Positions 3,409 through 59,188 of a DNA stretch of 64,000 nucleotides are shown piece by piece. Source of the stretch: an uncultured delta proteobacterium (GTDB lineage: Bacteria; Myxococcota_A; Polyangia; Polyangiales; Polyangiaceae); assembly GCA_963716725.1 (NCBI GenBank), contig CAVQUB010000005.1, positions 1 to 64,000 on the forward strand, given 5' to 3'. The notes below the pieces were generated by a model. That model made no database searches, was not told where the DNA came from, and saw nothing but the letters and a program-made list of their open reading frames with translations. The translations under genes and the position numbers were made by a program. Every line of letters starts with the position of its first letter. Position 1 is the first letter of the stretch.

Positions 3409-4587
3409 TCAGTCGGTGGACGCGTCGGGTGGCGCGGCGTCGGGGGACGCGTCGGGTGGGGACGCGTCGGGCGTCGAGGCGTCGGGCGTGGTGAGCAGGC
3501 TGCGGACGAGGCGGAAGCCGATGCCGCCGCCGCGATCGGAGCGGCCGCCGCTGAAGTGGCCAGCCGAGCGACACCGGGCACCACGGGAAATCGGTCCGCC
3601 GCCACGAAGAACGACTGCTTCGATGGGAGCCAGGATTTGCTGCTGACCCCACGGATCGACCAGAGGCGCTGTGCCGTAACCCAGTCCCTTCATCACGTCG
3701 TTGGTCCACTCGTGCGCGTTCCCGAGCACGTCGTGAAGGCCCCAAGCATTCTTCGTCTTCTCTCCCCCGGGGTGCGTGAGCGTACCGGAGTTCGCGCAGT
3801 ACCAAGCGGCCTTCACGAGGTTGGGATCGAGCTCGCAGTCCGAGGTCTGCGCCAGCTTGGTGATCGGACCCGTGTAGAAGGCCGTCGTGGTCCCTGCCCG
3901 CGCGGCGTATTCCCACTCGGCCTCGCCGGGCAGGCGGTACCCCTCGCACTCGTAGTAGGTGGGCGCGGTGGTGCCGATCTGGGTGCAGGCCATGCCCTCG
4001 CCGAGCTGTCCGGTGCAGCCCTCGAGCACGTAGCAGGGCTTCAGGCCCTCCTTCTGCGAGAGCAGGTTGGCAAACCCCGCCGCCTCGAACCACGTCACGT
4101 TGCCGACGGGGCAAGCGGGCTCGAGGCAGTCGCCGGAGTTGCCGGGTTTGATCGGAGCGGTGCTGGGATTCTTCAGGCCGAGGGCGACCCAGTCGGCCTG
4201 AGAGGTCTCCCTCTGCTGGATCAGGAACGGGTGGGTGAGCGCGACCTTCACCTGGTTCTCGTCGTTGGCGCCGCGGCCCCACTCGTCTTTCGGCGAGCCC
4301 ATCACGAAACAGCCGCCCGGGATGCGGCACCAGCCGGCCTTGCAGTCTTCGACCACCGGCGCGTGCTGACAGTCGAAGGTCGGGCCGGCGTCCGCGTCTG
4401 TTGCGGCGTCTGTGCCAGCCTCGGTGGCTGCGCCCCCGGTGCCCCCCGAGCCCGAGCTTCCGCCCGAGCTCGAGGTGGCGCCGGTGCCCGGTTGACCGCC
4501 TGAGGGCGCTGCAGAGCTGCCGCCGCCGTCGCTGCACGAGCAGCCGGCGAGGCACGAGGCGATCAACCAGGCGAGGGAGCTGCGCAT
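3409..4587 (-). CDS. FGE/SUMF1-domain lipoprotein, array copy 1
   Basis: 392 aa. Lipobox LAGC, Gly/Ser linker, FVMGS, PVGNVTWFEA, RLPGEAEWEYAARAG, WGLHDVLGNAHEW, RGG, GFRLVR, then a PDAS-repeat tail. Confidence 0.9.
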   Translation of the reverse strand: MRSSLAWLIASCLAGCSCSDGGGSSAAPSGGQPGTGATSSSGGSSGSGGTGGAATEAGTDAATDADAGPTFDCQHAPVVEDCKAGWCRIPGGCFVMGSPKDEWGRGANDENQVKVALTHPFLIQQRETSQADWVALGLKNPSTAPIKPGNSGDCLEPACPVGNVTWFEAAGFANLLSQKEGLKPCYVLEGCTGQLGEGMACTQIGTTAPTYYECEGYRLPGEAEWEYAARAGTTTAFYTGPITKLAQTSDCELDPNLVKAAWYCANSGTLTHPGGEKTKNAWGLHDVLGNAHEWTNDVMKGLGYGTAPLVDPWGQQQILAPIEAVVLRGGGPISRGARCRSAGHFSGGRSDRGGGIGFRLVRSLLTTPDASTPDASPPDASPDAAPPDASTD

Positions 4588-4593
4588 CGGGCC

Positions 4594-6612
4594 TCAGTGG
4601 TTGACGCCGAAGTCGCTGCCGGATTGGTGCAAGTGAGTGTAGCGAGCATCGGTGATGCCGTAGTACGCCTTCGCGCCATTATCGAGCGCCGACCACGAGA
4701 GGTTCTCGCTTTCGCACTCGGGTGGGGAGCAGGCCGTCAAGTACACCTGCCACAGGTTGCTCAGGCTGGTGCGCTGGGCTGTCGGTGCCGAGTTGATGTC
4801 ATACAAGAAGTTCATCCAGTCGTACTCCACGCCGCGGTTTGCGGTGAGGCACTGGTTCTCGAGCCACTTCACTGGGGTCTTGCAGTTCACGGCGACCGGG
4901 GGTTGCTGCACCACGTAAGAGCTGTCCATGAACTCCTTGTAGTATCCGAAGGCGCAGTCGGACTGCTCCTGATGATTGAAGATCCGGCTTGCGTACAGGT
5001 GCGCGAAACCCTCCGACGCACCCGCGCCGATGACCTCTTGCGATTGCAAGCAATGGTACTGGTTGGAAGAAGCCACGTGGTCGCAGCGGCAGAGCGACTG
5101 CGATGTCGGGTTGTCGTAGTCGGTCGTCAGGTTGCCCATGCCGAAGCCCTGCACCGTATGCCCGAACTCGTGGCCCACCACGAACTTGCTCCACGCGTCC
5201 GAGGGGTCCAAGGTGTTCTTTCGCCCGATGCAGATCGTGCTCTCTTTCAGCGCATGACTGGTCGACGCCCACGAGATGGGCGGCTCGCCGCCGCCCGACG
5301 AGCAATCGATGTTGTTCGAGCTCGGATCGCGCGTCGTCACTCGGATGTGCCCCTGGCTCAGCCCGTGATCGGGCATGTCGAACATTCTACCCCCGACCAC
5401 CAGGATGTTCGAGGCCACCGTGGTCAAGTAGACGCCGACCTGCACCGTGCTGGGCGCCGGGCCCGGGTGGACGTCGAAGAGCGTGCGGGCGTAGCCCACC
5501 ACCGGCGTGTTGGGCGGAGCGCCGCCATAGTCGAAGCTCTGCTCCGTCTCGACATCCATGGTCACCGCCCCGCTGTTGGTCTGAGTGCGCAGCTTGGACG
5601 CAAGAGTCAACCCGTAGGTGCCCGCCGGCAAATCCATGGTGGGCGTGCAGCCCGACGACCCAAGCCAGCCTGCCCACACCGCTTGACCGGTGTCGTAGTT
5701 CTCGAGCAGCGCTGCGGTGTACCGCGCCGGCTCCGCGTTGAAGCCGTTCATCCAGAAGTAGTCCTCGCCCACGCTGGCGTCGTAGAACTTCCACGTGTGG
5801 GACGCGCACACCTTCGTTGGGCCCGGTGGGCCGTCGAGGGGGGTGCCGGGCGCCGGCACACTGGCGGGCCACGCCTCCCAGAAGTCGACAGAGCCCCGGA
5901 TCTGGTAGCCCGCGCCGCCCACCGGCGGAAGCGAGGCGACGGGCACGAAGCTGCTGCCGTTCCAGACGTCACCTTGTGGCGTGAGCAGCGTCGCGTCCAG
6001 CGCCGCGAGCTGCATCCGCTCCTGGCGCGGGTCCCGCGGGTTCGACAGAGCGAAGCGCCGGGCGGTGGAGCCCCAGAGCGTGATCGTCGAGAGCCCCGGC
6101 TCGAACTCGTACGCCAGGCGCGACGTGGTGAGCTGGCGCTGAGCGCGCCCCTTGTAGAGCTGCAGGCTGGCGTGGACGCTGCTCACCGAGCCCACGGAGC
6201 GGATCGGGAGCCACGACAGGTCGATGGGCACCGTGAACGACGCGCGCGCGGGGACCACCAGGCTGCCCAGGAAGATGGACGCCTTTCGGGTTTCGAGGCC
6301 GAAGCTCTCGAGGGTGACCCCGACCGTGACGTCTTCGCCAGCGTTGTTGCTCATCACCAGACCGAAGCTCGCCGGCAGTGCCAGGCGTGAGTGGACGTCG
6401 AGGTCCACCCAGTCCGCCGAGACCCACGGCGCGCTGGCGCCGCCCTCGGGGATGTACACGCCGTTGACTCGCTGGCTGTTGGTCGAGACGGGTGCCTCTT
6501 CGTGACGGCCACAGCCTTCCAGGGCACCCAGCGCCGCCAGCGAGCAGAGCCACACCGCGATTCGTCCGCGGCGGCGGCGTTCGATTTTCTTCCGTGCAAG
6601 GTTCGTCTCCAT
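4594..6612 (-). CDS. Secreted lipoprotein, putative zinc metalloprotease
   Basis: 672 aa. Lipobox LEGC, VVGHEFGH (HEXXH) with downstream SEGFA glutamate (gluzincin-like), many Cys. Confidence 0.7.
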   Translation of the reverse strand: METNLARKKIERRRRGRIAVWLCSLAALGALEGCGRHEEAPVSTNSQRVNGVYIPEGGASAPWVSADWVDLDVHSRLALPASFGLVMSNNAGEDVTVGVTLESFGLETRKASIFLGSLVVPARASFTVPIDLSWLPIRSVGSVSSVHASLQLYKGRAQRQLTTSRLAYEFEPGLSTITLWGSTARRFALSNPRDPRQERMQLAALDATLLTPQGDVWNGSSFVPVASLPPVGGAGYQIRGSVDFWEAWPASVPAPGTPLDGPPGPTKVCASHTWKFYDASVGEDYFWMNGFNAEPARYTAALLENYDTGQAVWAGWLGSSGCTPTMDLPAGTYGLTLASKLRTQTNSGAVTMDVETEQSFDYGGAPPNTPVVGYARTLFDVHPGPAPSTVQVGVYLTTVASNILVVGGRMFDMPDHGLSQGHIRVTTRDPSSNNIDCSSGGGEPPISWASTSHALKESTICIGRKNTLDPSDAWSKFVVGHEFGHTVQGFGMGNLTTDYDNPTSQSLCRCDHVASSNQYHCLQSQEVIGAGASEGFAHLYASRIFNHQEQSDCAFGYYKEFMDSSYVVQQPPVAVNCKTPVKWLENQCLTANRGVEYDWMNFLYDINSAPTAQRTSLSNLWQVYLTACSPPECESENLSWSALDNGAKAYYGITDARYTHLHQSGSDFGVNH

Positions 6613-9873: not shown

Positions 9874-10128
9874 ATGTCGTCTCGGACGCAGTCCCACGCC
9901 AAAGAGCTCGAGCGCACCTACGGCGACGGCGAGTGCATCGTCGAAGAGGGGGACCACTCCCGGGACATGTTCGTGATCCAGACCGGACGGGTGCGCATCA
10001 GCAAGAAGGTCGGCGAGCGCCAGGTGGAGCTGGCGACCCTGGAGCGCGGCGACTTCTTCGGGGAGATGTCGCTGCTCGAATCACTGCCGCGCGACGCGAC
10101 GGCGCGCGCCGTGGGTGCCACGGAGCTG
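9874..10128 (+). pseudogene. Truncated cyclic-nucleotide-binding (Crp-like) domain gene, fused in frame to a transposase fragment
   Basis: EEGD...MFVIQTGRVRI...GDFFGEMSLL...PRDATARA cNMP motifs. Confidence 0.8.
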
Positions 10129-11308
10129 CCGCTCGTGCTCGACGGCGTGTACGTGCATCAGGACGACGACCCGAGCGCTCCGCTCGAGTTCCGCGAGCTC
10201 GACACGCCATCGCACGCCGACATCGCGGAGGTCGCGTCACGCACGGCGACACGCATCGAGAAGATCCTGCGCGCGCACGGACGGAGCCTCGACCCCGAGC
10301 TCGACGACGGCTCACCACCCGACCTCGCCCTCGACGAGCCCGGCCTCGCTGCCTGCTACGCCGCTGCGGCCCGGGGCATCTCGGTCAGCGGAGACCGCGC
10401 CGGCCAGCCGCCGCTCCGACTCATCGCGTCGCCGGAGCCACCCGCGCGCCCTCGCGCCGTCGACGCGACCGACCAGCCCATCGTCGACGCGACCGACCAG
10501 CCCATCGCCGAGGTCCGCGGCATCAACATCCACGCCGTGCAGGTCGTGGACGGCCGGGATCGCCGGAGAGTGGAGCGGCTCTGCAAGTACATTACACGCC
10601 CTCCCGTCGCGCAGGACCGCCTCGAGCGCCGCGCGGACGGCAAGCTCGAGCTCGGCTTCAAGCGGGCGTGGCGGGACGGCACGCGCGCGCTCGTGTTCGA
10701 GCCCGCGGACATCATCCCGCGTCTGGTCGCCGCGGTGCCGCCGCCACGATTCCATTTGCTCCGCTACTTCGGCGTCTTGTCGAGCCACTCTTCGCGGCGC
10801 CGGCTCGTCGTCCCGACGCCCACGCGCGACGCGACCGCGAACAAGCCCCCTCCCGCGCGCGGCGATCAGCTCGAGCTGCTCGGCGAGCGGGACGACGCGC
10901 CGGCGCCGCGCAACCGCTGGGCGTGGCTGCTCGCGCATGTCTTCGCCGCCGACGTCGAGACCTGCCCGCGCTGCTCGGGTCCGATGCGCTGGGCCGAGCT
11001 CGCCAAGACGCGCGCGGAGAGCACCCGCTTGCTCGCGGAGCATGGCCTCGGGCCGCGAGCGCCACCGGTCGAGCACGCGAAGGTGCGCGTGCCCGAGCAG
11101 TTGATGTTGGGGTTCGGGGAGGGGTGAGGCGTCGGTGAGCGCCTCGCCGAGGGCGGAGCTGTGTCCTGCGCCGGGCGCGACGCGGAGAAGCTCTGCCGAA
11201 CGGCGCCTTTCGGCCGCCCCGCAGGGGTTCGTGGGCAGCACTCGACCCGACCATCGACGCCGCGTACCCTTCGACTCGGTGGAATTTGGCAGTTCGATTG
11301 CCTTACGC
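10129..11308 (+). mobile_element. IS91/ISCR-family (HUH Y2-type) transposase 3' relic with an oriIS-like end
   Basis: LVLDGVY, ERLCKYITRPPVA..RL, LKR.WRDGT-like, RLVAAVPPPRFHLLRYFGVL, CPRC. End motif GCAGTTCGATTGCCTTACGC (11289-11308) resembles ISCR oriIS. 24-bp tandem duplication at ~10459-10506. Confidence 0.85.
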
Positions 11309-18919: not shown

Positions 18920-19130
18920 CGCTGGGTGACGTTCGCCGAGCACGACGAGCCTGGGACGACCCTTGGAAGTACCCGGGGGGGTAAGTCCCAGAAGTGGGAG
19001 GAGGTGGTCGAGGCACTCACGACGGACACTCCCAATGAATCGTTCACAGAAAGCGTTCGCCTTCGTCGCCCGCACAGGCGTTTTCAACACCCTCGTGCCG
19101 ACGCCGCGCGCGACGCGGTCGAACTTTCGG
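18920..19130 (-). pseudogene. rve/integrase-core transposase remnant carrying a nested 54-nt insertion
   Basis: VLKTPVRA.KANAFCERFIGSVRRECLDHL...VLGERH. Confidence 0.7.
18945..18998 (+). repeat. 27-nt mini-element, type A nested inside type A (54 nt)
   Basis: ACGAGCCTGGG[ACGACCCTTGGAAGTACCCGGGGGGGT]AAGTCCCAGAAGTGGG. Confidence 0.8.
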
Positions 19131-20091: not shown

Positions 20092-20420
20092 TCAGTCGAA
20101 GCGCACCACGCTCGGTGCTGCTGGTTGCGGCGACTGCGAGGGCAGTGCGAATTCCCGGTCGACATCCTCGCTTGGAATTTCGAGCAAATACATGAGAAAG
20201 AGACTGATCTCTCGCAGTCGTGCAACCGCGCCATCCCACGCTCGTTCGAAGCTTCCAGGCATTGCCGGGACGATCGTCGCGAGATTCGCGCTGATCGGGG
20301 CCCGTGTGTGGTCCAGGGTGGCTAGGCACGTGCTGATCAGATGGTAGCCGGCCTCGACTGTCCGGCGAAGTGCCTCGCTTTGCTCTTCCGTCTCGTACGC
20401 AGCGACGAAGACGTTGATCT
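20092..20420 (-). pseudogene. 5'-truncated hypothetical gene cut by the ISCR relic
   Basis: Open frame NVFVAAYETEEQSEALRR...VVRFD* with no clear start, abutting the transposase relic. Confidence 0.35.
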
Positions 20421-20423
20421 CCA

Positions 20424-21763
20424 GCGATCAACGTCCGCCCCTTCGGGCATCGCGAAGCGCGTCACTGCCACGCGCTCGTGCTCGACGGCGTGTACGTGCA
20501 TCAAGACGACGACCCCCGCGCTCCGCTCGAGTTCCTCGAGCTCGACGCGCCTTCCCACGCGGACATCGCCGAGGTGGCGGCGCGCACCGCGGCGCGCATT
20601 GAGAAGATCCTGCGTGAGCACGGCCGAAGCCTTGACCCCGAGCGCGACGACGGCACCCCGCCCGAGCTCGCCCTCGACGACCCTGGGGAATCCTCGACGG
20701 GGGACGAGCCCGGGCTCGCCGCCTGCTACGCCGCCGCGGCGCGAGGCGTCTCCGTCAGCGGCGAACGCGCCGGAAAGCTGCCCCTGCGGCTGATCACCTC
20801 GCCGGAGTCGACCGCGCGCCCACGCGCCGCTGGCGCCACCGACGAGCCCATCGCCGAGGTGCGCGGCATCAACATCCACGCCGCCCAAGCCATCGACGGC
20901 CGCGATCGCCGTCGCGTGGAGCGAATCTGTCAGTACGACCCTTGGAAGTCCCCGACGGGGGACATCACGCGCCCCCCGGTCGCGCAGGACCGCCTCGAGC
21001 GCCGCGCTGACGGCAAGCTCGAACTCAGCTTCAAGCGTGCTTGGCGTGACGACCCTTGGAAGTCCCCGACGGGGGGCGGCACACGCGCGCTGGTCTTCGA
21101 GCCCGCCGACCTCATCCCGCGCCTCGTCGCCGCGGTGCCACCACCTCGCTGGCATTTGTTGCGGTACTTCGGCGTGCTCTCCCTCTTCAGGGACTTCCAA
21201 GGGTCGTCGAGCCACTCGTCGCGACGGCGCCTCGTCGTGCCCACACCGCCGGCGGACGCGACCGCGAACAAGCCTCCGCCAGCCCGCGGCGATCAGCTCG
21301 AGCTACTTGGCGAGAAGGACGACGCGCCGGTGCAGCGCAAACGATGGGCATGGATGCTGGCCATTGTCCCCGCTGCTCCGGTCCAATGCGACGCGCTTCG
21401 CGATACTCGCAGGAGTGCTGGGCCGAGGTCGCAACGACCCGGGCCGCCATCACGCGCTTGCTCTCCGAGCACGACCCTGGGAAGTCCCTGAAGAGGGCCG
21501 GTCTCGGGGCTCGAGCGCCGCCGCCTCAGCACGCGAGCCTCCGCGTGCCCGAGCAGCTCGTGTTGGGGTTCGGGGAAGGGTGAGGCTTCGTCGCGGGACT
21601 CGCCAAGGCGGTGCTCCATGCTCGGTGGCGCCTTCTGCCTCGCAGTGACGGTCCGCAGCGGCAATCAGTGCTCAGCCAGCCGCCCAGACCTGCCTCTCGA
21701 CCTCCAACCGACACGCGCGTACTCTTCGACTCGGTGGGTTTTGGCAGATGGAATTTCCTACGC
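20424..21763 (+). mobile_element. IS91/ISCR-family transposase 3' relic with seven 27-nt insertions and an oriIS-like end
   Basis: Paralogue of 10129-11308, including the HUH motif (HCHALVLDGVY). Insertions at 20436-20462, 20677-20703, 20935-20961, 21049-21075, 21181-21207, 21391-21417, 21471-21497. End motif GCAGATGGAATTTCCTACGC. Confidence 0.85.
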
Positions 21764-23540: not shown

Positions 23541-23846
23541 CTACTTGTCCTTCAGCGAGATCAGCAGGTAGCCGGATTCGTCCGTCGTGAACTTCACGTA
23601 GAGGATCCGGGCCTCGAACGGCAGGTGGTACACGTCCTGCCAGATGCGGTGGTCTCCAATCGAGGTCATCGACTTGTAGAAGTGGGCACGCTCGACGGTC
23701 TGAACGAGGTCCACGATCCCGGCGTCGGAGAGCCCAAGGTCGAGCGTTGCGAACGTCAAGCTGGACTCGGTGAGCCGGAGGCCGTCCACCGTGGAGAAGG
23801 TAGCCTTGATCGAGACGAGGTCGTAGTGGGGACGCCTCTTCTCCAT
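23541..23846 (-). CDS. mqsR: MqsR-family mRNA interferase toxin
   Basis: MEKRRPHYDL..IK...FYKSMTS..DHRIWQDVYH...YVKF...LISLKDK. Confidence 0.9.
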   Translation of the reverse strand: MEKRRPHYDLVSIKATFSTVDGLRLTESSLTFATLDLGLSDAGIVDLVQTVERAHFYKSMTSIGDHRIWQDVYHLPFEARILYVKFTTDESGYLLISLKDK

Positions 23847-24376
23847 TGCGACCTGTGGAGCATGGCACCTCTAAGGAGCCACGTCAAGAGCAGCCGATCA
23901 CTCCGTTCGGCGTCGTTGAATGGCCAGAAAGCCTACCGGAACAACTTGGAGAGCGCCGAGCGGCGCACGGAGACGAAGGGGGCCCCGTCCGGCGGGGCGA
24001 TAGGTACCAAGCTGGTTGTCGCCCGGTCCCTCGGCCGGCACGTACACCAAGCTCGTCATCCGCTTTCGTGGCCCGTTCTGCTACCTCGATGCTCATCGGA
24101 AGGGTGAGGACTACCATTCCAGCTCTTCTTGCTGCTGCTGGGGCCAGTGAAGTCCAGCAGCTCGTCAGCGAGCACGGGGCGGTGCCGGTGATCGTGATCG
24201 ACGAGGATGGTGTGGCAGCGGTGTCGTTCTGCCAGGTCGGACCGAGGTTCGATGCCAGCATGACGAATCTCTCCGAGCGACGCCGCTGGAGCGCCCCCAA
24301 CGCTGAAGAAGCCGAACACGGCTGTGATGTCCGTGACCTTCGACGACTCGACCAGGAAGGAGTAATCTTGAACCCG

Positions 24377-24601
24377 ATGCACGCCTTGAAGGCCCAGGTG
24401 AAGAACGGCCGTCTCGTTCTCGACGAACCGACTGATCTGGCGGAAGGCAGGGAGGTCGAGCTTTTCGTCCTGGACGACGAAGAGTTCGCCCCGGAGGAGA
24501 AGGCTCGGTTGCTCCAGGCCATCGAGGACGGGGTCGAAGATTTCGAGCGGGGCGACCACATGGACGGCTTCGAGTTCATCGCCCAGCTACGAGCCAAATG
24601 A
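24377..24601 (+). CDS. Small antitoxin-like protein; partner gene apparently removed by the ISCR fragment
   Basis: LKAQVKNGRLVLDEPTDL.EG.EVEL...L.QAIE....D.ERG; its stop overlaps an ATG at the start of the duplicated ISCR block. Confidence 0.55.
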   Translation: MHALKAQVKNGRLVLDEPTDLAEGREVELFVLDDEEFAPEEKARLLQAIEDGVEDFERGDHMDGFEFIAQLRAK

Positions 24602-25428
24602 GTCGGAGGTCGGAATTCACGCGTTGCACAGCGGTGATCGCGCCGCTCTGGCCTTTGCCCACGCGGTAGAGGTCGCGCATCGTGCGGCGGTAGAAGCCGA
24701 GCACGCTGTCGGCGAACAGTCGCGTGATCCGGCTGAGCAGCTCGCGGTCGTAGGCGACGCGGGCGCGGAGCTCGAACGGCAAGGTGAGAACCCACTGCCT
24801 GAGCGGAGCACGCGACGGCAGAACATGGTCGATCCAATTCGCCGCTGACTCGGCCATCGTTCTGCCCAGGCACGAGGGGCACCATGCGCGTCCCTTGCAA
24901 GAAAACGCGACCAAGAGCTTCGCGCGGCACTTCGGGTCTTGGCATTGAAGAAATCCAAAACCGTGCGCCAGGATTCCGCACTCGAGGTAGCCCTCGAACT
25001 CATCCCTCACGAACGCCGGCAACAGCGCGATGATCTCTTCGGTCTGCGGCGGCTTCGAGCGTGCGGTAGTTCTCGGCGACGACCTGGTAGAAGTCGCTGA
25101 GCTCCGGTCGCCGGCGTCGATATTCGACGCCGCTGCCATCCGAAGTTGCGTCCGAGATCGGCAGCGCGGCGGCCATCGCCGCGCCCGAGCGCACACGGCG
25201 TGCCGACCCCGCCCGGGGCGAGAACGCCGCAAATTACCGTGTTGCAGGCGCTCGGGTGGGTGGCGAAACGCCGGCCGCCGGCGGCGGCCGCCACTGCCCA
25301 CCGCTGCGCGCTACCCCGCCGCCGCCGCGAACCCCAGCGACGCACCCGATTCCGGCGCTCGCATCACCAGCATCAGACGCGTCCGTTCCCTGGCAAGCCA
25401 GGGTCCGAAGCTCGTGAACCACGCCGGC
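24599..25428 (-). mobile_element. Duplicated 5' part of the ISCR-like element (copy of 34414-35242)
   Basis: ~830-nt near-identical repeat containing the zinc-binding region (CG.L.HGF...C...FSCKGR.WCPSC); 1-nt frameshift near 25040. Confidence 0.9.
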
Positions 25429-25440
25429 GCGTCCCTTCCC

Positions 25441-25516
25441 GGGGTGGTAGCTCAGCTGGGAGAGCGCCTGGATGGCATCCAGGAGGTCTGGGGTTCGATT
25501 CCCCACGGCTCCACCA
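25441..25516 (+). tRNA. tRNA-Ala(GGC)
   Basis: Cloverleaf with GGC anticodon, G3:U70 pair, TTCGA T-loop and encoded CCA; one G-G mismatch in the acceptor stem. Confidence 0.9.
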
Positions 25517-25952
25517 ATGCAATGAATTCGAACCCCCCTCCGCAACTTGCAGGAGGTTGAGGCTCTTGAGCTTGCAGGTGCCAGGCGCTTCCGAGACCGA
25601 CCCGTCGGGCGGCTTCGCAACGGGCGCAGCGCCCACCCGCCGATAGCGGACATGGTGGATCGGGCCCGGCAGCGGGCGACTGCCGACGTTCTCAAGGTTG
25701 CGCGCGCAGATGGCGTTCGCGTCGGCATGAGCGCTCTTCAAGTCGGTCTTCACGTGGGTGCCGAGTCCGCGCGCGGTGCTGCGCATGGCCGATGCAACGC
25801 AGGAAGATGCTCAGGCGCCCCTCAAGCCGTCAACACCGTGCGGAGTTGCCCTGTAAACTGGGCTCTGCACCCACCACCGTTCGCCGCGCCCGCCACTGAG
25901 CGCGCCCGGCACCCAGCTGGCCGACATCGACGGGGACGGCGCGCTCGACCTG

Positions 25953-28900
25953 GTGCTGAAGAGCGGGCTCGCCGAGTTCCGATTCTTCCCTGGGAAGTCG
26001 GCGACCAGCTTCGGCGCCAAGGTCCAGATCCCCACGGTTCCGAACGTCGACTTCGACGACCCGAACGTGCAGCTCGCGGATCTGGACGGCGACCGCCGCG
26101 CAGACGCGGTGATCTCGGCGGCGAGCGGGTGGGCCGTGGCCTACAACCTGGGCGGAAGCGACTTCGCCGCGCCCGCGAAGCTGGGCGTGATCGACGCGAA
26201 GCAAACGCTCCACTTCGCCGATGGCCACACCTCGCTCTGCGACGTCAACGGCGATCGCGTCGAGGACGTCTGCTACTTGATCCCGGGTTCGCTCGCCTAC
26301 TGGCTCGGACGCGGTCGGGGCGTCTTCGAGCCCGCGGCGTCGGGAAGCGGCGTGCCCACGTTCGAGGCCTCGAGCCCTTGGGAGCTCCGCGACCTGAACG
26401 GCGACGGCTGGGTCGATCTCGTGCACGTCGGCGTGGGCCAGGTGCGCTTCGCCCTCGCCGTGGCGCCGGGCCAGTTCGGCCCCGAGCGCAGCATCGGTGG
26501 CGTCCCTCAGAAACTCCCGAGCACGGTTGTACGCTTCGCCGACATGAACGCTTCCGGCACTACCGACGTCGTGTGGGTCGACGTGACCGGAGCGCCGAGC
26601 GCCGCCTGGCGCTACCTCGAACTCTTCCCAAACGGTCGCGCCGGCCTACTGCGCAAGATCGACAACGGCTTCGGCGGCACAACCACCATCGCGTACGGCA
26701 CCGCCGCCCAGGACGCCGCCGCCGCCCGCGCCGCCGGCAAGCCTTGGGACACACGGATCAACGTCGCGCTGCCCGTGGTGAAGGGCGTTCGGTTCGACAG
26801 CGGGCTCTCGGATCCTGCCCAGACGACGGAGTACGTCTACCAGGACGGCTCCTACGACGTCGCCGCACGCACCTTCGCCGGGTTCGGGGGCGGCGAAGAG
26901 ACCGTCGTCGGCGACTCGAGCACGCCGACTTTGATCACCAGCAGCCGCTTCGACGTCGGGCTCGTGCACCGCGTGCTGCGCGGTGCGGTGCTCAGCGTCG
27001 AGACCCGAAGCGAGACGGGGAAACTCTTCACGCGTGTGGAGAACCAGCACGCTGTCTTGCCGGTGGCCAAGGGTCTCGACGGCCGCGCCATCGAGTACGC
27101 CTACCGCTCGAGCGAGGCGAAGCAGATCGCGGAGGGCGTCGACCCCGCGCTCGCGCGGCACACGCTCGCGGAGTGGGAGCACGACGAGTGGGGGAACGAG
27201 ATCGCCCATCGTGACTTCGGCGAGGTGGTCGCCGGTGACGTGCTGGCGGGCAACGACGAGCGCATCACGCTGGCGACCTACGCTCAAGACACGGCGAACT
27301 GGGTCCTCGGGCGCCCCGCAACCCGCGAGGTGCAGAGCGCCGCGGGCAAGCGTTTCTCGCTCGTCCGGACGTACTACGACGGCAAGGCCTTCGAGGGGCT
27401 CTCGCTGGGAAAAGTGATGCGCGGTGACGCCACCCGCATCGAGCAATGGGCCGGTCCGGAGAAGGATCGGTTCGTCCTCACCACCGCAAACGCGCACGAC
27501 GCCCACGGCAACGTGACCGAGAGCCGTGACGCGGCCGCCGGTGCCCGGCGCTTCGCGTGGGATCCGGTCGACCACACGTCGCTGCTCGGCGAGACGCTCG
27601 TGCTCGAGGGCCGCGAGCTCGAGGCCACCACCCAGGTGCACCGGCCGAGCGGCAAGCCGCTGAGCGTGACCGGATTCGACGGGCAGAAGACCCTCTTGGC
27701 GTACGACGCGCTCGGCCGACTGACGGCCATCGCGCGGCCGGGCGACACTCTGGAAGCGCCGACCTTGGCGTACGAGTACCTGCTGAGCGCGCCGCTGTCG
27801 CGCATCGTCACTCGTTCGCGAATCTGGAGCGGAAAGGACGAAGTCGAGATCCAGGAGAGCCTGATCGATTCGCGCGGCAAGAGCCGCGGCCGGATGTTGC
27901 GTGACGGCGCGGAGCGTTGGGTGCTGGACGGGGTTACGCTCTTCGATGCGCGCGGCAACGCCCGACGCGACGTTTTACCTCGCTTCCTGACCCTGGCGGA
28001 GCACGACTCGCCGCCGCTCCTCGACGAAGCCCCTGGCACCCAGCAGCGACGCGACGCCATCGGGCGAGTCATCGAGCGGCGCCTGCCCAGCGGCATCCAG
28101 AGTCGGATCGAATACATGCCCCTCGGCAAACGGACGTGGGACGGGGCGGCGAACGATCCCGCCTCGCCCTACGAGCACACCCCCGCGGTGGAGGCGATGG
28201 ATGGGCTGGGCCGGCTTCTGTCCATCTCGCACACGCTCGAAGGCAAGCTCCTGACGGAGAGCTACGAGTACGACGCGGCCGACAACCTCTTGTCGAAGGT
28301 CGATCCCGAGGGACACGTGTCGCGCTTCGCCTACGACGGCCGCGGCCTTCGGATCGCCATCGACGACCCGGACGCCGGCAAGCACACGCTCGCATACGAC
28401 GACGCCGGCAACCTGGTCGAGCACCGACGGCCCGACGGCACCATCGGTCGCGACCGCTTCGACCGCTTGGGGCGCAAGCTGAGCGAGGACTGGGACGGCG
28501 ACGGCGAGCCCGAGGTCGAGCTCGAGTACGACGAGCACCCGGACCGCCCCGGGGACCCGAGCGCGCGCGGCCGGCTGGTGATCACGCGGGACGCGAGCGG
28601 CTCGATCACGCGGAGCTACGACCCGCGCGGGAACGTGGTGCGCCTGCACCAGATCGTCGAGGGCGAGAGCTACGTGTCCGAGATGCGCTACGACGCGCAA
28701 GACCGGCTCTATCTCCATGGTTACCCTGACGGTTCGTCGCTCCGGCTCCACCGCAACGAGCGCGGGCAAATCTCCCGTTACGGCAGAGCAGTGGAGATCG
28801 CCCTCGACGCCGACGGGCAGGAGACGCAACGCACGTTCAACACCGGCGTCACCCAGCTGTTCGGCTACGACGACGATCGCCTGCCGCGCGCGAGCCGAGT

Positions 28901-30671
28901 CAAGGCGCCCGACGGCGGCGTCCTGCAGGACCTCGAATGGGCGCGCGACGGCGCAGGCAACGTGCTGGAGGTGAAGGATCGCCGCGCCAGCATCGACTCC
29001 GCGACGGACCGCGGCGAGGTCTACGTCTACGACAACCTCTACCGCTTGCGCAGCGCGTCGGGCAGCTGGGGCGAGACCTCGTGGAGCTACTCGCCGAGCG
29101 GCAACCTGGTCCACAAGAAGAGCACGCTACCGGACGAGAACGCCGGTGACCTCGGATACGGCAAGTCCGCCGGCCCCCACGCCATGACCCGGTACCGCGG
29201 GCGGACCCTGGCCTACGACCCGATGGGTCGGATCATCGACGACGGCGTGCGCAAGTACCGTTGGGACGCCTTCAGCAACCTGATCGCCGTCGAGACCAAC
29301 CAGGCCTCGGTCGAGAGCACGTTCGGGCAAGACCACGAGCGTCGGGTCAAAGTCGAGCGCGGCGCGGACGGTCAAGAGCACCGCACTCACTTCCTCTCGC
29401 CGTGGAGCGAGGTGCGCGACGGGGAACTCGTGCGCTTCATCGTGCACGAGGGTCAGCGCATCGCGCGGCTCGGCCCCGGCACCGGAAGGCCGGCGGCGCT
29501 CGGACCACTGCCGGAAAACGGCGGTCCCACCTCGCCCTGGCCGTTCTTCTTCATCGCGCTCGTGCCGGCCATCGAGCTCCTGCGCGGGCAGCGCCGCTGG
29601 GCCAGTGCGCACGCGCTCGCGGCGGTGGCGCTCCTCGGCTGCAGCGGGGACGACGCAAGCCGGAACGCCTCGCCCTCCGAGGGTACCGTGCTCACGCTGG
29701 GCGCGGACGACGCCCTGCTCTTCCATGATGGCCTCGGGTCGCTGACGGAGGTGGTGCGCGCGACGGGCGAGCGGCTCGCGAGCGTGGCCGTGTATCCGTA
29801 CGGGCGCACGCGCTACGACGACGCGAGCGAGACCGACAAGTACACGGGGGTGCCCCGCGACGGCAGCGTCGAGGTCGATCACATGCAGGCGCGCTGGTAC
29901 GTGCCGGAGCTCGGCGTCTGGAGCAGCGTCGATCCGCTGAACTGGCTCGACCCGACCAAGAAGGCGGGTTTGGCGTTCGCGACGGGAAACCCGTACGCTT
30001 ACGCGGGCGGGCAGCCGACGACGCTGACGGACCGGAGTGGGGAGTGTGGGCCGTGCGTGTTTGTCGTCGTGGGTCTCGCGGGCCTCGCGTCGGGCATCGC
30101 TGCCAACTCCGAATACAATCGACAGATCAAGGCCCGTGAGCCCTCGAGCCTTCCGAAGATGATCGCGGCCAGCGTGATCGCTGGCGAGGGTTCTCTGCTG
30201 AGCAGCCAAATCCCAGTGGCTGGTGTGTTCGGCGAGTCGTTCGCGGGTGCAATGACTCTCGGGGCGATCCGAGGCTCCGCAGTGTCAGCAGGAACTTACG
30301 GTGCAACGGTCGCCGCCACCGGGCAGCCCTTCGACAACGAGTACTTCTCGAAGACCGTCGCGTGGGGCGGGGTTTCTGGCGCCTTCAGCGGCATGCTGTC
30401 CCAGGGAAAAGCGAACTGGGACACGTCGGGCTGGACGGCCGCCCAGGTCGAATCCGGCCACAAGCAGCACCAGATCGCGTCGAGCTTGATCTCCGGGCAG
30501 ACCAGTACGCTCAAGTCCACCGTGTTCCTACCCTCACCCAAGCCCAGCCCGAGCTCGGCGCCCAAGCCCGCGGTGCAGTCTTGGGTGTACTCCTACTCGG
30601 TTTCGAGAAGCGTCGAGGGAACGAACACCGCCGAGTGGACCGACAACATGGTGAAGGAAGTGCAGCGGTAA
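25953..30671 (+). CDS. TcdB-like/Rhs (YD-repeat) toxin with FG-GAP repeats, probably 5'-truncated
   Basis: DLDGD/DVNGD repeats, GLLRKIDNGFGG, YD repeats, Rhs core end ARWYVPELGVWSSVDP...NPYAYAGGQP..LTDRSG, then a ~205-aa hydrophobic C-terminal domain. The frame opens mid-repeat after a stop near 25854. Confidence 0.85.
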   Translation: MLKSGLAEFRFFPGKSATSFGAKVQIPTVPNVDFDDPNVQLADLDGDRRADAVISAASGWAVAYNLGGSDFAAPAKLGVIDAKQTLHFADGHTSLCDVNGDRVEDVCYLIPGSLAYWLGRGRGVFEPAASGSGVPTFEASSPWELRDLNGDGWVDLVHVGVGQVRFALAVAPGQFGPERSIGGVPQKLPSTVVRFADMNASGTTDVVWVDVTGAPSAAWRYLELFPNGRAGLLRKIDNGFGGTTTIAYGTAAQDAAAARAAGKPWDTRINVALPVVKGVRFDSGLSDPAQTTEYVYQDGSYDVAARTFAGFGGGEETVVGDSSTPTLITSSRFDVGLVHRVLRGAVLSVETRSETGKLFTRVENQHAVLPVAKGLDGRAIEYAYRSSEAKQIAEGVDPALARHTLAEWEHDEWGNEIAHRDFGEVVAGDVLAGNDERITLATYAQDTANWVLGRPATREVQSAAGKRFSLVRTYYDGKAFEGLSLGKVMRGDATRIEQWAGPEKDRFVLTTANAHDAHGNVTESRDAAAGARRFAWDPVDHTSLLGETLVLEGRELEATTQVHRPSGKPLSVTGFDGQKTLLAYDALGRLTAIARPGDTLEAPTLAYEYLLSAPLSRIVTRSRIWSGKDEVEIQESLIDSRGKSRGRMLRDGAERWVLDGVTLFDARGNARRDVLPRFLTLAEHDSPPLLDEAPGTQQRRDAIGRVIERRLPSGIQSRIEYMPLGKRTWDGAANDPASPYEHTPAVEAMDGLGRLLSISHTLEGKLLTESYEYDAADNLLSKVDPEGHVSRFAYDGRGLRIAIDDPDAGKHTLAYDDAGNLVEHRRPDGTIGRDRFDRLGRKLSEDWDGDGEPEVELEYDEHPDRPGDPSARGRLVITRDASGSITRSYDPRGNVVRLHQIVEGESYVSEMRYDAQDRLYLHGYPDGSSLRLHRNERGQISRYGRAVEIALDADGQETQRTFNTGVTQLFGYDDDRLPRASRVKAPDGGVLQDLEWARDGAGNVLEVKDRRASIDSATDRGEVYVYDNLYRLRSASGSWGETSWSYSPSGNLVHKKSTLPDENAGDLGYGKSAGPHAMTRYRGRTLAYDPMGRIIDDGVRKYRWDAFSNLIAVETNQASVESTFGQDHERRVKVERGADGQEHRTHFLSPWSEVRDGELVRFIVHEGQRIARLGPGTGRPAALGPLPENGGPTSPWPFFFIALVPAIELLRGQRRWASAHALAAVALLGCSGDDASRNASPSEGTVLTLGADDALLFHDGLGSLTEVVRATGERLASVAVYPYGRTRYDDASETDKYTGVPRDGSVEVDHMQARWYVPELGVWSSVDPLNWLDPTKKAGLAFATGNPYAYAGGQPTTLTDRSGECGPCVFVVVGLAGLASGIAANSEYNRQIKAREPSSLPKMIAASVIAGEGSLLSSQIPVAGVFGESFAGAMTLGAIRGSAVSAGTYGATVAATGQPFDNEYFSKTVAWGGVSGAFSGMLSQGKANWDTSGWTAAQVESGHKQHQIASSLISGQTSTLKSTVFLPSPKPSPSSAPKPAVQSWVYSYSVSRSVEGTNTAEWTDNMVKEVQR

Positions 30672-31514: not shown

Positions 31515-34500
31515 GCATAGGTGAAATGAACGGGGGGTGGTTGGTGAGCTGGCGCGTCTGAACGTCGAATCGGCTGCTGTTGAAGGAGCGAGCAGCGCGC
31601 GGAGCAGTCTCGGCAGTCTCGATTCGCCTCGCGGCGCCATCCTTTTCACCGCTGACACCACCATCGTTCCGGTCTCGGAGAATACCAGGCACACGACCGC
31701 CCTGCACGTCGCGAGCATCGCAATGCATCACTCACCGAACATATCCAGCTGCGGGAGCGAGTCGCTGTCGAGCTCGCCGAACCTCCGGCGCAGCGCCGGG
31801 CTCGTGAAGAACGGCGGTCTTCGCGCTGGCGCGATGGGAGGAGGCTCGGCATCCTCTCCGAGCCTGCGCAGGAAGCGCGTCACGGTCTGGGCCGCAGTGA
31901 CCATCCCCCCGCCGGGGATGCCCCTCCGGGCACTTTCAAGGATCGTCACGAAGCGCGTCGCGCGGAGCAGCATGGGTGCGCCGCACTTGGCACATTTCTC
32001 GCTGTCGATTTTGAAAGTGCGCTTGAGGAGCTCACGCCACGGGCGATAAGTCGAGCGATGCGTCGCCGGTCGTGCGGCGGTGGCGGTCTCATCGTGAATG
32101 TGGGCAGGAGCACGCGCAGGGTTCGTGGTGGCACAGTCGTGCACCGGTGGCGGAGGTGGAGCGACTCTGGTTCTCCAGCGATGAGCTGCAGCGAGCACCC
32201 CCGAGTCCCCCGTCGGGGACTTCCCAGGGTCGTAATGGACGCGATGGGCGCGTGGGGCAGGCACCGAGGCGGCTAGCCGGAGAAGAAACGACAACGGATC
32301 GAGATCGATGGCCGTGGTGCCGTCGGAGAACGGTCGCTTGAGCAGGATGCGACGCGCTTCGCGACGATCCTTGAAAGTGCCCGGAGGGGCATCCCCGAAG
32401 GGGGGCACGAGCCCACTTCCGAGTCGACGCACTCGGTCTTGCGCGAGCGGCGGGCGTAGGACGTACTTGCAGAGGGTTTCGCGAGCACGCGCGTCCTCCC
32501 CCGTCGGGGACTTCCCAGGAGCCGCTTCGGAACACCCGGAGGGCTCATGATTGATCGGATCCCATCTGGGACCGGGCAGCTCGGAAGCCGATCTCGTAGT
32601 CGAGGAGCTTCTGGTAGCCCCGTCCTAACGTTTGCCACCCGGGTGCGCCGTTGTTCTTCAGATGCCCGCCGAGTCGCGCGACAGCGAATAGCGCTTGCTC
32701 AATGGTCTGCGGGACGGCCGGGAGGCGGAGCTTGAACTTTATGAGGAGCAACTGGGGCTCACTCAGGATCGTTGTTGCCGGTTGCTCGGGTGCGACGCGG
32801 GCTAACGAGCGCATGAGCAACAGGCGCCAGGCGATGGGCAGGAACACGGCGAGCGCGTTGCTCAGTGCCTGATACGACTCGAGCTGTCGTTTCTCGAGAG
32901 AACACCCTTGCTTGAGTGCCTTGAAGAACTCTTCGATCACCCACCGACTGCGGTAACAGTCCACGACGGTCGCGAGTTCGGCGACGGTGTCAATGGGTTC
33001 GGTAGTGAGCAGCACCCACTCGACCGACGGCTCGCCTTCTGGTGGTTGGAGTTCCCAGACTCGAACCACGTTGAGTTCGATGCTGCGCGTCTCATGTCGA
33101 GTGTTGCGGGGGCGCAGCACAGTCAAACGTTTGCCTGCCACGGCGACCTCCGCGCTCCGGGCGTTGCGAGACGGGTGCTCTTTTGCAGCATGCGCGCGAC
33201 TGCTCGGTTTCCTCGATGACACCGAGATCGTGCGAAAAAACTGCGGTTCGAGCGTTGAGATTGCACTGCGCAAGCAGATGCCTATTTCCTCAGTTACTCG
33301 GTCGTGAGCCGAACGGATGACGTAGCGCGCACCGAGTTCCTGCGCCTTCGCCAGGACCTCGAAAATGTCCGCTTCGCGGTCCATCACGTGAATGAGCGCG
33401 CTGCCGGGGCAGCGTGCATGGACGGCCTCGAGCATGGCCGGCCAGCGCAGTGATTCGCGCTCGGGGTCTCTCCGACTGACAGACCGGCGGCGCCCGCGTC
33501 CACCCTTGTGTACGAGGCGGACGTGTCGCTGTAGACCCAGAACTCCGAGTGGCACTCGCTCCTCGCCGGGAAGCACGGCCAGCGCCACGTGTGCGAGAAA
33601 CCCCTGGCTGCCGCCGGACGTGACGCCCAACCCAGCTCGCCGACTGGCGCCGCCGAGCGATACTTCGGTCGTATCGTGCGCGACGATACACAGGCCAGCG
33701 GAACTCACACGCTCCACCGTCGCCGACAGGTGCGGGTCAAGGATCTGCTCCGCGTCGAACTGCTCGTTGCGCAGGAATCGGTAGACTCCCTCAAGCTCGG
33801 ACGGAGTGTCGACAGCCTGCGGAAACCCAACACCGGGCGCCGCCATCAGTTTCTCAGCGAGCCAACCGAGCCTGTCACTGCGCCGCTTATCGCCGAGCTG
33901 AGAGCCCTCGAACTCGTCCGAAATCGACCGCCCTAACCATTCTGTTGCCGGCATTTCTCCCGTAGATCACACGCGCCGTCCGCTCGCAATGAGATGTGTT
34001 TGATCATGAGCCGGAGGGGTGGTCCTCGCCGGGAGCCGTGGTGGCCGCATGCACCGAGAAGCCGTCCTCGCGGGCGGCCAGACCGGAAACGGAGAGCTCG
34101 CCGCGATCGGGCAGTGCGATGGCGGGACGCTGCCGATGCTCGGGCCCCGCCGGAGGGTTGCCGGTGACGGCGGCGGTGGCGAGTGCGGCCAGCTCGGGCT
34201 CGCGCTCGGCGAAACCGTCGTCGGTGAGGCAGAGCTCGTTGTCTCGTTCGACGACGCCGCGACGCGCGAGAAAGTCCAAGATGCGCACGCGGGCGGCGTG
34301 CAAGAGATCTGCGACGTCGGAGTTGGAGAGCGCGGGGAGCTGGTGGAAGACGAGGCTCCCGTCATCGGTCTCGAGGAAGACTCCGTCCAACGCGAGCAGG
34401 TGCAGGTGGGGGTTGAGTCGGAGGTCGGAATTCACGCGTTGCACAGCGGTGATCGCGCCGCTCTGGCCTTTGCCCACGCGGTAGAGGTCGCGCATCGTGC

Positions 34501-35242
34501 GGCGGTAGAAGCCGAGCACGCTGTCGGCGAACAGTCGCGTGATCCGGCTGAGCAGCTCGCGGTCGTAGGCGACGCGGGCGCGGAGCTCGAACGGCAAGGT
34601 GAGAACCCACTGCCTGAGCGGAGCACGCGACGGCAGAACATGGTCGATCCAATTCGCCGCTGACTCGGCCATCGTTCTGCCCAGGCACGAGGGGCACCAT
34701 GCGCGTCCCTTGCAAGAAAACGCGACCAAGAGCTTCGCGCGGCACTTCGGGTCTTGGCATTGAAGAAATCCAAAACCGTGCGCCAGGATTCCGCACTCGA
34801 GGTAGCCCTCGAACTCATCCCTCACGAACGCCGGCAACAGCGCGATGATCTCTTGGTCTGCGGCGGCTTCGAGCGTGCGGTAGTTCTCGGCGACGACCTG
34901 GTAGAAGTCGCTGAGCTCCGGTCGCCGGCGTCGATATTCGACGCCGCTGCCATCCGAAGTTGCGTCCGAGATCGGCAGCGCGGCGGCCATCGCCGCGCCC
35001 GAGCGCACACGGCGTGCCGACCCCGCCCGGGGCGAGAACGCCGCAAATTACCGTGTTGCAGGCGCTCGGGTGGGTGGCGAAACGCCGGCCGCCGGCGGCG
35101 GCCGCCACTGCCCACCGCTGCGCGCTACCCCGCCGCCGCCGCGAACCCCAGCGACTCACCCGCTTCCGGCGCTCGCATCACCAGCATCAGACGCGTCCGT
35201 TCCCTGGCAAGCCAGGGTCCGAAGCTCGTGAACCACGCCGGC
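31515..35242 (-). mobile_element. Near full-length IS91/ISCR-family element interrupted by IS4 and four mini-insertion sites
   Basis: N-half 34027-35008 (FSCKGR.WCPSC, RQWVLTLP, LRLNPHLHLLALDG = HUH). C-half 31728-32497 (ETLCKYVLRPPLA, KRPFSDGT, CAKCG). oriIS-like GTTCATTTCACCTATGC at ~31518-31534. Confidence 0.85.
32544..34010 (-). mobile_element. Intact IS4-family (IS50/Tn5-like) insertion sequence, 1467 bp; transposase 32545-33954
   Basis: Terminal IRs CTCATGAT; 8-bp target duplication CCGGAGGG at 32536-32543 and 34011-34018; LGDKRR, HDTT, MDREAD and YRSRWVIEEFFKALK (YREK) motifs. Confidence 0.92.
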
Positions 35243-58299: not shown

Positions 58300-59188
58300 A
58301 TGTTCGCGCGCTGGTTCTGCTCCTGCTCCGCTGTCGTGCTCGTCGTGACGCGCTTCGCGACGATCCTGGAAAGTCCCCGGAGGGGGATACCCGACGGGGT
58401 GGGGCAGGCATGGGCGGCCGAATCGGGGATTCGATCCCGAGTCACCGGCCGAGTCGACGCCTGCGCCTGCGCCTGCGCCCGCGACGACGGCGGATCCGCC
58501 GTACGCAGCCTGGCAAGGCTCGGGTCACGCCCCACCCGACGGCTACTCACCCGGATCGATTCCGGCGCCAGCGGTCGGCGCACCCATCTACGCGCGTCGA
58601 ACGGTCGAGCTCATCCCCGCGCTTGGCGTCGCCCTGGCGAACTGTCGCGCCGGCTCCCGCTCCGACAACCGCTGTGATGGCGTCGGCGGCGGCGGCATCG
58701 TCGGGTTCACCGGGCTCTGGCGAGTCACGCCCTACTTCGCGTGGGGTGGCGGCTTCGAGGTCGCGGCGTTCCGCAATCGACCCTCCGAGGAGAGTGAGCT
58801 CTCCGACGCGAGCGCTGCGGCCGTGTGGCTCGGGCTGATCGGTCGGGTGTATTTCAACGACGAAGGCGCCCTCGATCCCTACGTGCAACTCGCCATCGGC
58901 GTCGGTGCGCTCGGCACGCAGGCGACCGATCCGGCGGACGTCACCTGGGAGGAGACCGGCGCCGGACCCGCGGCACAAATTGGCGGGGGCCTCGACTTCC
59001 ACCTTTCGCGATCGCTTCGGCTCGGTCCGTCGCTGACCTACACACGGGTGTTCGTGGACAAGATCCGACGCTGTCAGGCCTCGGGCGGCGGCAAGTGCGA
59101 GGACGTGTCGAAGGACGACGACGGTCACTTGAACTCACACCTGACGCTGGCCGCTCGCCTGACCATCACTCTGGGGGGGGAGCACTGA
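58300..59188 (+). CDS. Secreted/outer-membrane beta-barrel-like protein with a 54-nt insertion in its signal peptide and a +1 frameshift near 58428
   Basis: MFARWFCSCSAVVLVV[18-aa insert]GQAWAAESG, continuing in the next frame as FDPESPAES...DPYVQLAIG...LTITLGGEH*. Confidence 0.6.
58348..58401 (+). repeat. 27-nt mini-element, type A nested inside type B (54 nt)
   Basis: ACGCGCTTCGCG[ACGATCCTGGAAAGTCCCCGGAGGGGG]ATACCCGACGGGGTG; same composite as 31905-31958 and 32352-32405. Confidence 0.85.

Follow-up and report, generated by a model that had tools for sequence, protein, structure and literature searches.

How does a transposase gene come to hold insertions nested four levels deep, and what are the small sequences that make up the inner levels? 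The question is raised by an IS91-family transposase gene in a 64,000-nt stretch from an uncultured delta proteobacterium of the Polyangiaceae (positions 1 to 64,000 of contig CAVQUB010000005.1, assembly GCA_963716725.1; hereafter the window). The gene has been invaded by 27-nt hairpin-bearing units of two types, A and B, and by an IS4-family insertion sequence (IS). Our answer, which we consider probable as a whole, is that A and B are two related 27-nt families of non-autonomous mobile DNA, confined to one genus of Polyangia and a few neighbours.

The type A unit is exactly 27 nt long, consisting of a 15-nt head, ACGAYCCTKGRAAGT, followed by a 12-nt hairpin of the form N-CCC-NNNN-GGG-N'. Type B, also exactly 27 nt, is made of two hairpins, ACGCGCTTCGYG (CGCG-CTT-CGCG) and a second one such as ATACCCGAAGGGGTG. 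Since the two types are identical at 16 of 27 aligned positions and have in common an ACG start and the type of 3' hairpin (N-CCC-GNNG-GGG-N', with GNNG loops in both), they were treated as related families. In both, a conserved 5' arm precedes that hairpin. A complete 4-bp stem follows 90 of the 103 exact A heads, and the outer stem pair, which lies outside the requirements of the search filter, is of the Watson-Crick type in 31 of 34 distinct variants, with three types of pair. The predicted hairpin is backed by covariation, in that compensatory changes preserve the stem, and not by folding energy. In the window, the A head has 9 matches versus 0.02 expected (100 shuffles); in the genome, the A head-plus-stem pattern has 92 matches, while the same pattern read backwards as a control had none in all 41 genomes searched. 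Rfam holds no family matching A or B units.

An earlier note on the window, made from the sequence, had described mini-elements of these two types, and every unit was recovered where it had been placed. The host gene, which the note called ISCR, is corrected here at the family level to an IS91-family transposase, as it combines a Zn-binding N-terminal domain (Zn_Tnp_IS91) with a Y2 HUH transposase domain (Y2_Tnp). The gene and its insertions are as follows; C35 is a contig carrying a paralogue of the gene, and G006 and G002 are genomes of congeners.

31737 to 35047, minus strand: IS91-family (Y2/HUH, rolling-circle type) transposase gene, with Pfam Zn_Tnp_IS91 and Y2_Tnp; host to four mini-element insertions and the IS4-family element
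31905 to 31958, minus strand: A-in-B 54-nt composite, inner A after B position 12; sense to the host gene, translated TRFVTILESARRGIPGGG; absent from the C35 paralogue and G006
32207 to 32233, minus strand: single type A unit, translated PGKSPTG(D), in a unit frame different from that of the 31905 composite; absent from C35 and G006
32352 to 32405, plus strand: A-in-B 54-nt composite, antisense to the host, translated PPFGDAPPGTFKDRREAR; absent from C35, G006 (two copies) and G002
32498 to 32519, minus strand: 3' 22 nt of the outer A unit of the nest, intact at C35:5778-5831
32520 to 32543, plus strand: first 24 nt of an inverted B variant (AGCCGCTTCGGA plus ACACCCGGAGGGGTG), nested after A position 5
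32536 to 32543, no strand: left copy of the 8-bp target duplication CCGGAGGG, with the hairpin loop at its centre; a single copy in C35
32544 to 34010, minus strand: IS4-family IS of 1467 bp, with ends CTCATGAT and ATCATGAG and a transposase open reading frame (ORF) at 32545-33954
34011 to 34018, no strand: right copy of the duplication CCGGAGGG
34019 to 34021, plus strand: final 3 nt (GTG) of the inverted B variant
34022 to 34026, minus strand: 5' 5 nt of the outer A unit, AGGAC here versus ACGAC in C35

The four insertions amount to seven units, all read through in one frame with both halves of the gene translated; the fourth insert (A plus inverted B) reads DHPSGCSEAAPGKSPTGE. Only the IS4-family element breaks the gene. 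The four-level nest at 32498-34026 is as the earlier note had drawn it, with the transposase gene holding A, A holding an inverted B, B holding the IS4 element, and CCGGAGGG on both sides of the IS. Its statement that removal of the IS leaves an in-frame 54-nt insert is borne out twice: i) the IS plus one copy of the duplication is 1475 nt, and its removal keeps the transposase frame (2540-1475 = 1065 = 3 x 355), and ii) the C35 paralogue carries the same 54-nt A/inverted-B composite uninterrupted, with one copy of the octamer.

Empty sites were found both for these insertions and elsewhere. The C35 paralogue (79–91% identical) has clean gaps at three of the four window insertions (the 31905 54-mer, the 32207 27-mer and the 32352 54-mer), and one orthologous transposase copy of G006 lacks all four, including the composite of A with inverted B. 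A second G006 copy and the G002 copy are without the two insertions that fall within their aligned stretch. Outside mobile DNA, the 54-mer at C8:298119-298172 is absent at the orthologous site in 5 of 5 congeners, as is the single B unit at C9:158868-158894, which lies in frame in a conserved gene with a CBM9 domain. Paralogous empty sites were also found upstream of a DUF559 gene and in a 180-nt repeat resembling a MITE (miniature inverted-repeat transposable element). In all filled/empty comparisons the gain is exactly 27 or 54 nt, with a junction ambiguity of 0–3 nt (2 nt, AC, for the A unit at 32207-32233), and in none of the comparisons of A and B units was a target-site duplication found. 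A and B are thus true insertions. They are not MITEs, which have terminal inverted repeats and a duplication matching those of a parent IS; the unit ends are not inverted repeats and the gain is exact, without duplication.

The MITE-like repeat itself, of about 180 nt with inverted ends (CTCAAGAGCTGTCGAA ... TTCGACAGACCTTCAG), is found with a B unit at C8:149396-149580 and is present in at least 15 other places. Its copy at C6:120177 has no B unit, and three copies have an IS4 element inside B, giving nests of MITE, B and IS4.

A second IS91-family lineage, represented by three paralogues (window 20.4-21.6 kb, window 10.1-11.2 kb and contig C12), shows at least nine 27-nt presence/absence differences, and the C12 ORF of 599 residues is open despite six units. 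The first of these paralogues comprises:

20418 to 21488, plus strand: second IS91-family transposase gene fragment (Pfam Y2_Tnp)
20436 to 20462, minus strand: B unit
20677 to 20703: degenerate A unit
20935 to 20961: A unit
21049 to 21075: A unit
21181 to 21207, minus strand: A unit
21391 to 21417: B-like unit
21471 to 21497: A unit

Six of the seven units of this fragment are absent from the paralogue at window 10060-11230; among those six, two are also absent from C12 and three are common to C12. The seventh, B at 20436-20462, has no empty site and lies at the truncated 5' end, where the three copies fail to align.

For the genome-wide catalogue, complete units were found with up to one head mismatch, removed, and the search repeated. 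This motif-based parsing was used since GC-rich simple sequence overwhelmed a k-mer-based de novo search for repeats. The B pattern, at first too loose (884 matches), was tightened, and six B calls (C2:364383, C5:483522, C11:187809, C13:110059, C33:114238 and C6:71378) were excluded by eye before all counts. As the parser misses degenerate units (e.g. window 20677-20703 and 21391-21417), the counts are lower bounds. The genome contains 110 A and 47 B units at 104 sites: 73 single units (41 A and 32 B), 13 A-in-B composites, ten 54-nt A-A sites (7 nests and 3 two-unit tandems), 2 sites of inverted B in A, not counting the interrupted one in the window, and, with the 3 two-unit tandems included, 9 tandem arrays of 2–7 units, the other six having 4–7. 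The earlier note had called for a count of 27-, 54- and 81-nt composites; no 81-nt nest was found genome-wide by the parser. Deeper nests than any in this genome were seen in another delta-proteobacterial metagenome-assembled genome (L075-L081), where the same composite junction occurs and six copies of a larger repeat consist of a B left arm and an A head, followed by further nested hairpins.

The nests are fixed in position. The inner A lies after B position 12 in 13 of 13 A-in-B composites, the inner unit after A position 11 in 7 of 7 A-in-A nests, and the inverted B after A position 5 in 2 of 2. In the window, the three A-in-B composites with one insertion point (31905-31958, 32352-32405 and a third) and the A-in-A nest reported in the earlier note agree with this pattern, the latter two being:

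58348 to 58401, plus strand: A-in-B 54-nt composite with different stem variants
18945 to 18998, plus strand: A-in-A 54-nt composite, inner unit 18956-18982, after outer position 11

Two explanations had been offered for this constancy, namely that the junction between the hairpins is a preferred target and that the 54-mer moves as one unit, and our data speak for both. The inner units of A-in-B composites comprise at least six sequence variants, two of which match common free A variants at every one of their 27 nt. At the same time, inner and outer variants are linked: of the 13 A-in-B composites, 7 have an inner unit with the head variant ACGATCC, which is present at 5 of 59 other A sites (Fisher p = 6e-4), and the composites that bear it have unrelated flanks, with whole 54-mers absent as single blocks from orthologues. 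Because of this linkage, some 54-mers can be said to spread as units; since other inner units are identical to the commonest free A variants, these are better explained by repeated nesting at one place. Besides the spread of 54-mers as units, a preferred nesting site is therefore likely.

A purely genealogical explanation would do without any preferred internal target: one A-in-B 54-mer, and one A-in-A 54-mer, would have arisen once by chance and then spread. The linkage of ACGATCC to the nested state and the block absence of whole 54-mers fit such a history, and 3 of the 13 A-in-B copies have common flanks and are paralogous copies of one event. However, the variety of inner units, including those indistinguishable from free A, is hard to derive from a single founder without repeated paired stem substitutions inside the composite, and A-in-A and inverted B-in-A are equally constant, at other positions. 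We regard descent as the sole cause of the fixed positions as unlikely.

The units have a short 5' target preference. Of 37 B sites, 35 have G at -1 and 28 have C at -2. Of 53 A sites, 37 have G upstream and 45 have A downstream, and a C comes next in 34 (neighbours within arrays are included in these figures). The nesting junctions in A and B are both G^A steps. Both orientations are used, and units are intergenic as well as intragenic, including in 5' leaders.

The IS4-family element has its own target, the hairpin. Its transposase contains the Pfam domains Tnp_DNA_bind, DDE_Tnp_1 and Dimer_Tnp_Tn5 (the last below the cut-off, 18.6 versus 26.7 bits) and is Tn5-like; DDE_Tnp_1 with Tn5-type domains, the CTCATGAT ends and the 8-bp duplication place the element in the IS4 family. 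Seven full and three partial further copies are present in the genome. When the IS ends were compared with the genome by BLAST, 9 left and 8 right ends were found at 10 sites (two of which are possibly copies of one event), and wherever the flank could be read (10 of 10 insertion sites) the IS has entered the CCC-GNNG-GGG hairpin, either in a B unit or in a B-type hairpin that is nested in A; both IS orientations are seen, and the loop is at the centre of the 8-bp duplication. Two other ISs with related termini, one represented by two ends and the other by one, occupy the equivalent place in A hairpins. The earlier note had surmised that IS4 favours these hairpins, proposed to examine the flanks of its other copies, and named random inner insertion points together with unassociated IS4 copies as what would count against it; the flanks and the nests show neither.

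Several hairpins contain an internal 8-bp direct duplication (e.g. CCGACGGG twice) and no IS (C13:26520-26707, C13:329183-329375, C21:257989-258175, C6:71322-71509 and C6:95005-95193, with more near C1:147994, C5:716559 and on C11 at about 22 kb). These are possible excision footprints of IS4-family elements. The IS4 copy at C10:8849-10329 is flanked by perfectly inverted, not direct, copies of one half mini-element, and one flank matches that of the partial copy at C1:162243, which suggests an inversion or an exchange between IS copies.

A Pfam scan of 20 host ORFs found a domain in 17 (the GC3-based gene caller used covers 62% of the genome, and its frame calls are weak at many sites). Hosts with Pfam support include YbeY, a DinG-like helicase, an ArsA-type ATPase, a branched-chain amino-acid permease and a TPR protein with a 7-unit array, and sense and antisense units were both seen across the 14 host genes examined. 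Of 9 DUF559 matches, 7 are within 8 kb of a unit, both being found in the same IS-rich islands. One of the DUF559 genes also serves as a host: it contains a B-like unit, and an A lies 69 nt upstream of it. Among the 41 genomes, the type A pattern has its 92 matches here, 0–13 in six congeners, 4 in one other genus and none in the other 33 relatives searched. Type B is found in the same genomes as A, plus two matches in one further genus (G023), with no matches in controls. The two families thus occur together in 5 of 6 congeners and one further genus; one more genus has B without A, and a search of the remaining 32 relatives gave neither.

Arrays of 2–7 A units lie about 70 nt upstream of the ORF in a 2.1-kb multi-copy HNH-type element, at least seven copies of which are 98–99.8% identical but differ in unit number (2–7). 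In the copy at L018 (G000 C5:604000-607000), the ORF (1311-2780) encodes a 489-residue HNH-type protein with an N-terminus that we take to be DUF222-like, and an extra in-frame insert of about 87–91 nt (L018:2336-2426) splits the HNH motif relative to homologues.

We propose the following course of events. A copy enters as an exact 27-nt block, in either orientation and without a target-site duplication, B behind (C)G and A behind G, with A (often AC) downstream. Since the unit is nine codons long and most of its frames are free of stops, the frame of the host stays open. New copies would also land at the units' own junctions, which are TKGG^A in A and, in B, the CGYG^A that separates its hairpins, and because the units contain the preferred junction, nests would form at fixed positions; once formed, some 54-nt composites are copied as single units. 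Tandem arrays may arise through repeated insertion at a unit's own border, or through slippage. Independently, the IS4-family (Tn5-like DDE) element and the two ISs with related ends target the palindromic hairpin, a symmetric cut round the loop giving the 8-bp duplication, which would account for the nest of the IS91-family gene, A, inverted B and IS4. The HUH enzymes of IS200/IS605, IS91 and RAYT (REP-associated tyrosine transposase, REP being the repetitive extragenic palindrome) make no target duplication and use a short 5' target, and the units recall them in both respects. We suggest, tentatively, that movement may be a single-strand, hairpin-dependent copy-in for which a nuclease, of the HUH type or structure-specific in some other way, would act in trans.

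Several observations weigh against this account. Folding energies of single units are no better than those of shuffles (z -1.6 to +0.5). Each unit has 2–3 G^A steps and nesting occurs at one only; since the other steps are unused, the target rule is incomplete. The identity of nesting positions is partly due to descent and not to independent events. As to current activity, the fragmentary contigs of public runs gave no empty or filled alleles. No mobilising enzyme could be tied to A or B among the candidates examined. IS91-family and HNH-family genes are also present in relatives without A and B, so that neither gives a phyletic signal, and DUF559 genes likewise provide no phyletic or positional proof. 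The hairpin repeats on either side of the genome's clear RAYT-type Y1 gene form a different pair. The orientation of the units is not biased by replication strand (for A, 11/9 versus 4/9; for B, 10/6 versus 6/4; skew is weak here), so that a lagging-strand mechanism like that of IS200/IS605 is unsupported.

Three candidates were rejected in the course of the analysis: i) a 162-nt public contig that joins 32535 to 34011, skipping the IS, was considered as an empty allele, but has 13 differences and is a C35-type paralogue, ii) the HNH/DUF222-like 2.1-kb element was considered as the mobiliser, but its homologues in other genomes have no A unit and the family is present in genomes free of A and B, and iii) B was considered as the terminal hairpin of an IS91-like IS, but is internal.

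Could the IS91-family Y2 (HUH) transposases be more than hosts, either mobilising the units or supplying single-stranded rolling-circle intermediates as insertion targets? If so, the position of IS91-family genes as the main hosts would be explained. IS91-like regions carry 18 of the 104 sites in 0.42% of the genome, and sites are found at 5 of 14 Y2_Tnp loci (17 sites) versus 1 of 17 rve and 1 of 19 DDE_Tnp_1 loci; in other genomes many A and B matches adjoin IS91-like genes, and the missing target duplication fits HUH enzymes in general (IS91, IS200/IS605). Set against this, 9 of the 14 Y2_Tnp loci are without any unit, several sites are common to paralogues by descent, which reduces the total to about 14 independent events, and old resident copies may simply have had longer to collect insertions. 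Moreover, the family is present in 26 of 41 genomes as compared with 7–8 for A and B, and a complete 2228-bp IS91-like element in G002 has ends unlike A or B, with the B unit internal. A causal role of these transposases is thus doubtful.

No dedicated enzyme would be needed if the copies arose at breaks or stalled forks, through repair synthesis or a template switch promoted by the hairpins, with junctions set by microhomology. Such a process would leave no target duplication, as observed; the 0–3 nt (A, AC, or A-GAC) that the 3' flank has in common with the 5' end of the unit itself could have guided it, and the arrays of 2–7 units among nearly identical 2.1-kb element copies are of a kind that it could produce. 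Yet it does not readily give base-exact boundaries at dozens of unrelated loci, both orientations and two families fixed at 27 nt, and hairpins and repair are universal, whereas the families are limited to one genus. We consider it an improbable source of A and B.

That A and B are the REP sequences of a REP/RAYT (REPIN) system is less probable still. REPIN hairpin repeats are believed to owe their movement to an HUH Y1 transposase that is present in single copy and acts in trans, and have neither terminal inverted repeats nor target duplications (PMC3116915, PMC3333891, PMC2817692). The present units agree in these two respects and in being hairpin repeats that are short and rich in GC; two Y1_Tnp genes are present in the genome, and REPs are recorded as IS targets (PMC1525189). 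They differ in arrangement, as there are no inverted doublets and many units are not extragenic, lying in Pfam-supported ORFs as same-orientation nests or direct arrays. They also lack a cognate RAYT: the RAYT-like gene (C5:165574-165909) has flanking repeats of its own, two other inverted hairpin repeats that are neither A nor B, and the nearest B variant is 3 kb away. The region (G000 C5:165300-166300; L002:1200-2500), in which two hairpin repeats, GCCCGCCC-TTCG-GGCGGGC and CCCCGGGAT-NN-ATCCCGGGG, stand as an inverted pair on either side of this IS200-like Y1 gene of RAYT type, has the appearance of a REP/RAYT system of its own within this genome. Finally, a selected peptide repeat, i.e. a protein-level module, might be read from the arrays of 27-nt units in tandem and from their being in frame, but is hardly credible, as A and B units within one gene are read in two frames and on both strands, lie also between genes and in 5' leaders, and are missing from orthologues.

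Other features of the window are worth noting. An island-like stretch (23541-30671) contains an ORF for an MqsR-type toxin (23541-23870), tRNA-Ala(GGC) (25441-25516), a gene for a 1572-residue RHS/TcdB-mid-N/FG-GAP protein (25953-30671) and an IS91-family gene fragment (24599-25428) 99.6% identical to 34414-35242. At window 1-5000, a 1.7–1.8-kb unit is present in three tandem copies, 73–95% identical (e.g. 367-666, 2058-2357 and 3860-4159), with the coding side on the minus strand.

Literature searches found no description of such elements in myxobacteria. The closest parallel is in cyanobacteria, where the small dispersed repeats SDR4 to SDR6 of Nostocaceae, 21–27 nt in length, are reported by Elhai et al. 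(2008, Genome Res 18:1484) to be mobile, inserting into characteristic targets and into each other. On that description, A and B resemble them in tiny size, dispersal, filled and empty states in the same context, and self- and mutual insertion at characteristic targets (13/13, 7/7 and 2/2 fixed positions). They differ in belonging to another phylum, in being both exactly 27 nt with many in frame in protein genes, in that 54-mers spread as units and in that an IS targets the hairpin. According to PMC5861425, SDR5 uses HIP1 as its insertion site and SDRs are found only in Nostocaceae. Given phylum and GC content, a common origin of A/B and SDR4-6 would seem unlikely.

The ISs known to be specific for REPs belong mainly to the IS3 and IS110 families. 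According to Tobes and Pareja (2006, PMC1525189), such elements (IS1397, ISPpu9/10, ISPsy8, ISPa11 and ISRm19/22) insert specifically into a short repeated palindrome, as the present IS does at its 10 sites. Here, in contrast, the IS is a Tn5-like DDE element of the IS4 family with an 8-bp duplication centred on the loop, and its targets are not classical extragenic REPs. Rickettsia palindromic elements are selfish palindromes lying in frame in unrelated protein genes that are not destroyed (PMC10969869), a behaviour seen also in A and B; they are about 100–150 bp with a conserved peptide, whereas A and B have 27 nt, are translated in various frames and orientations, and form nests and arrays.

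At 27 nt, these units come close to the smallest mobile DNA known in bacteria. On the question of how such DNA moves, this genome offers an unusually clean data set, with exact empty sites, fixed nesting points and composites that act as new units, and the strong excess of sites in HUH-transposase genes provides a testable enzyme candidate. YbeY, a DinG-like helicase and an ArsA-type ATPase tolerate 9-residue inserts of selfish origin, and the Tn5-like transposase, having a palindromic target that is defined, could find practical application. Taken at its boldest, and at odds that we put as low, the material would describe a second, independent example of a class of ultra-small (27-nt) bacterial mobile DNA, the first being the cyanobacterial SDRs, moving as single-stranded hairpins without duplication, mobilised by or preferentially invading IS91-family HUH transposons, building 'Russian-doll' composites that become new mobile units, adding loops of 9 or 18 residues to proteins, and serving a Tn5-like transposase specialised on the hairpin loop. 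If the IS91 link were true, an enzyme would be named for a kind of repeat that has been without a mobility mechanism since 2008.

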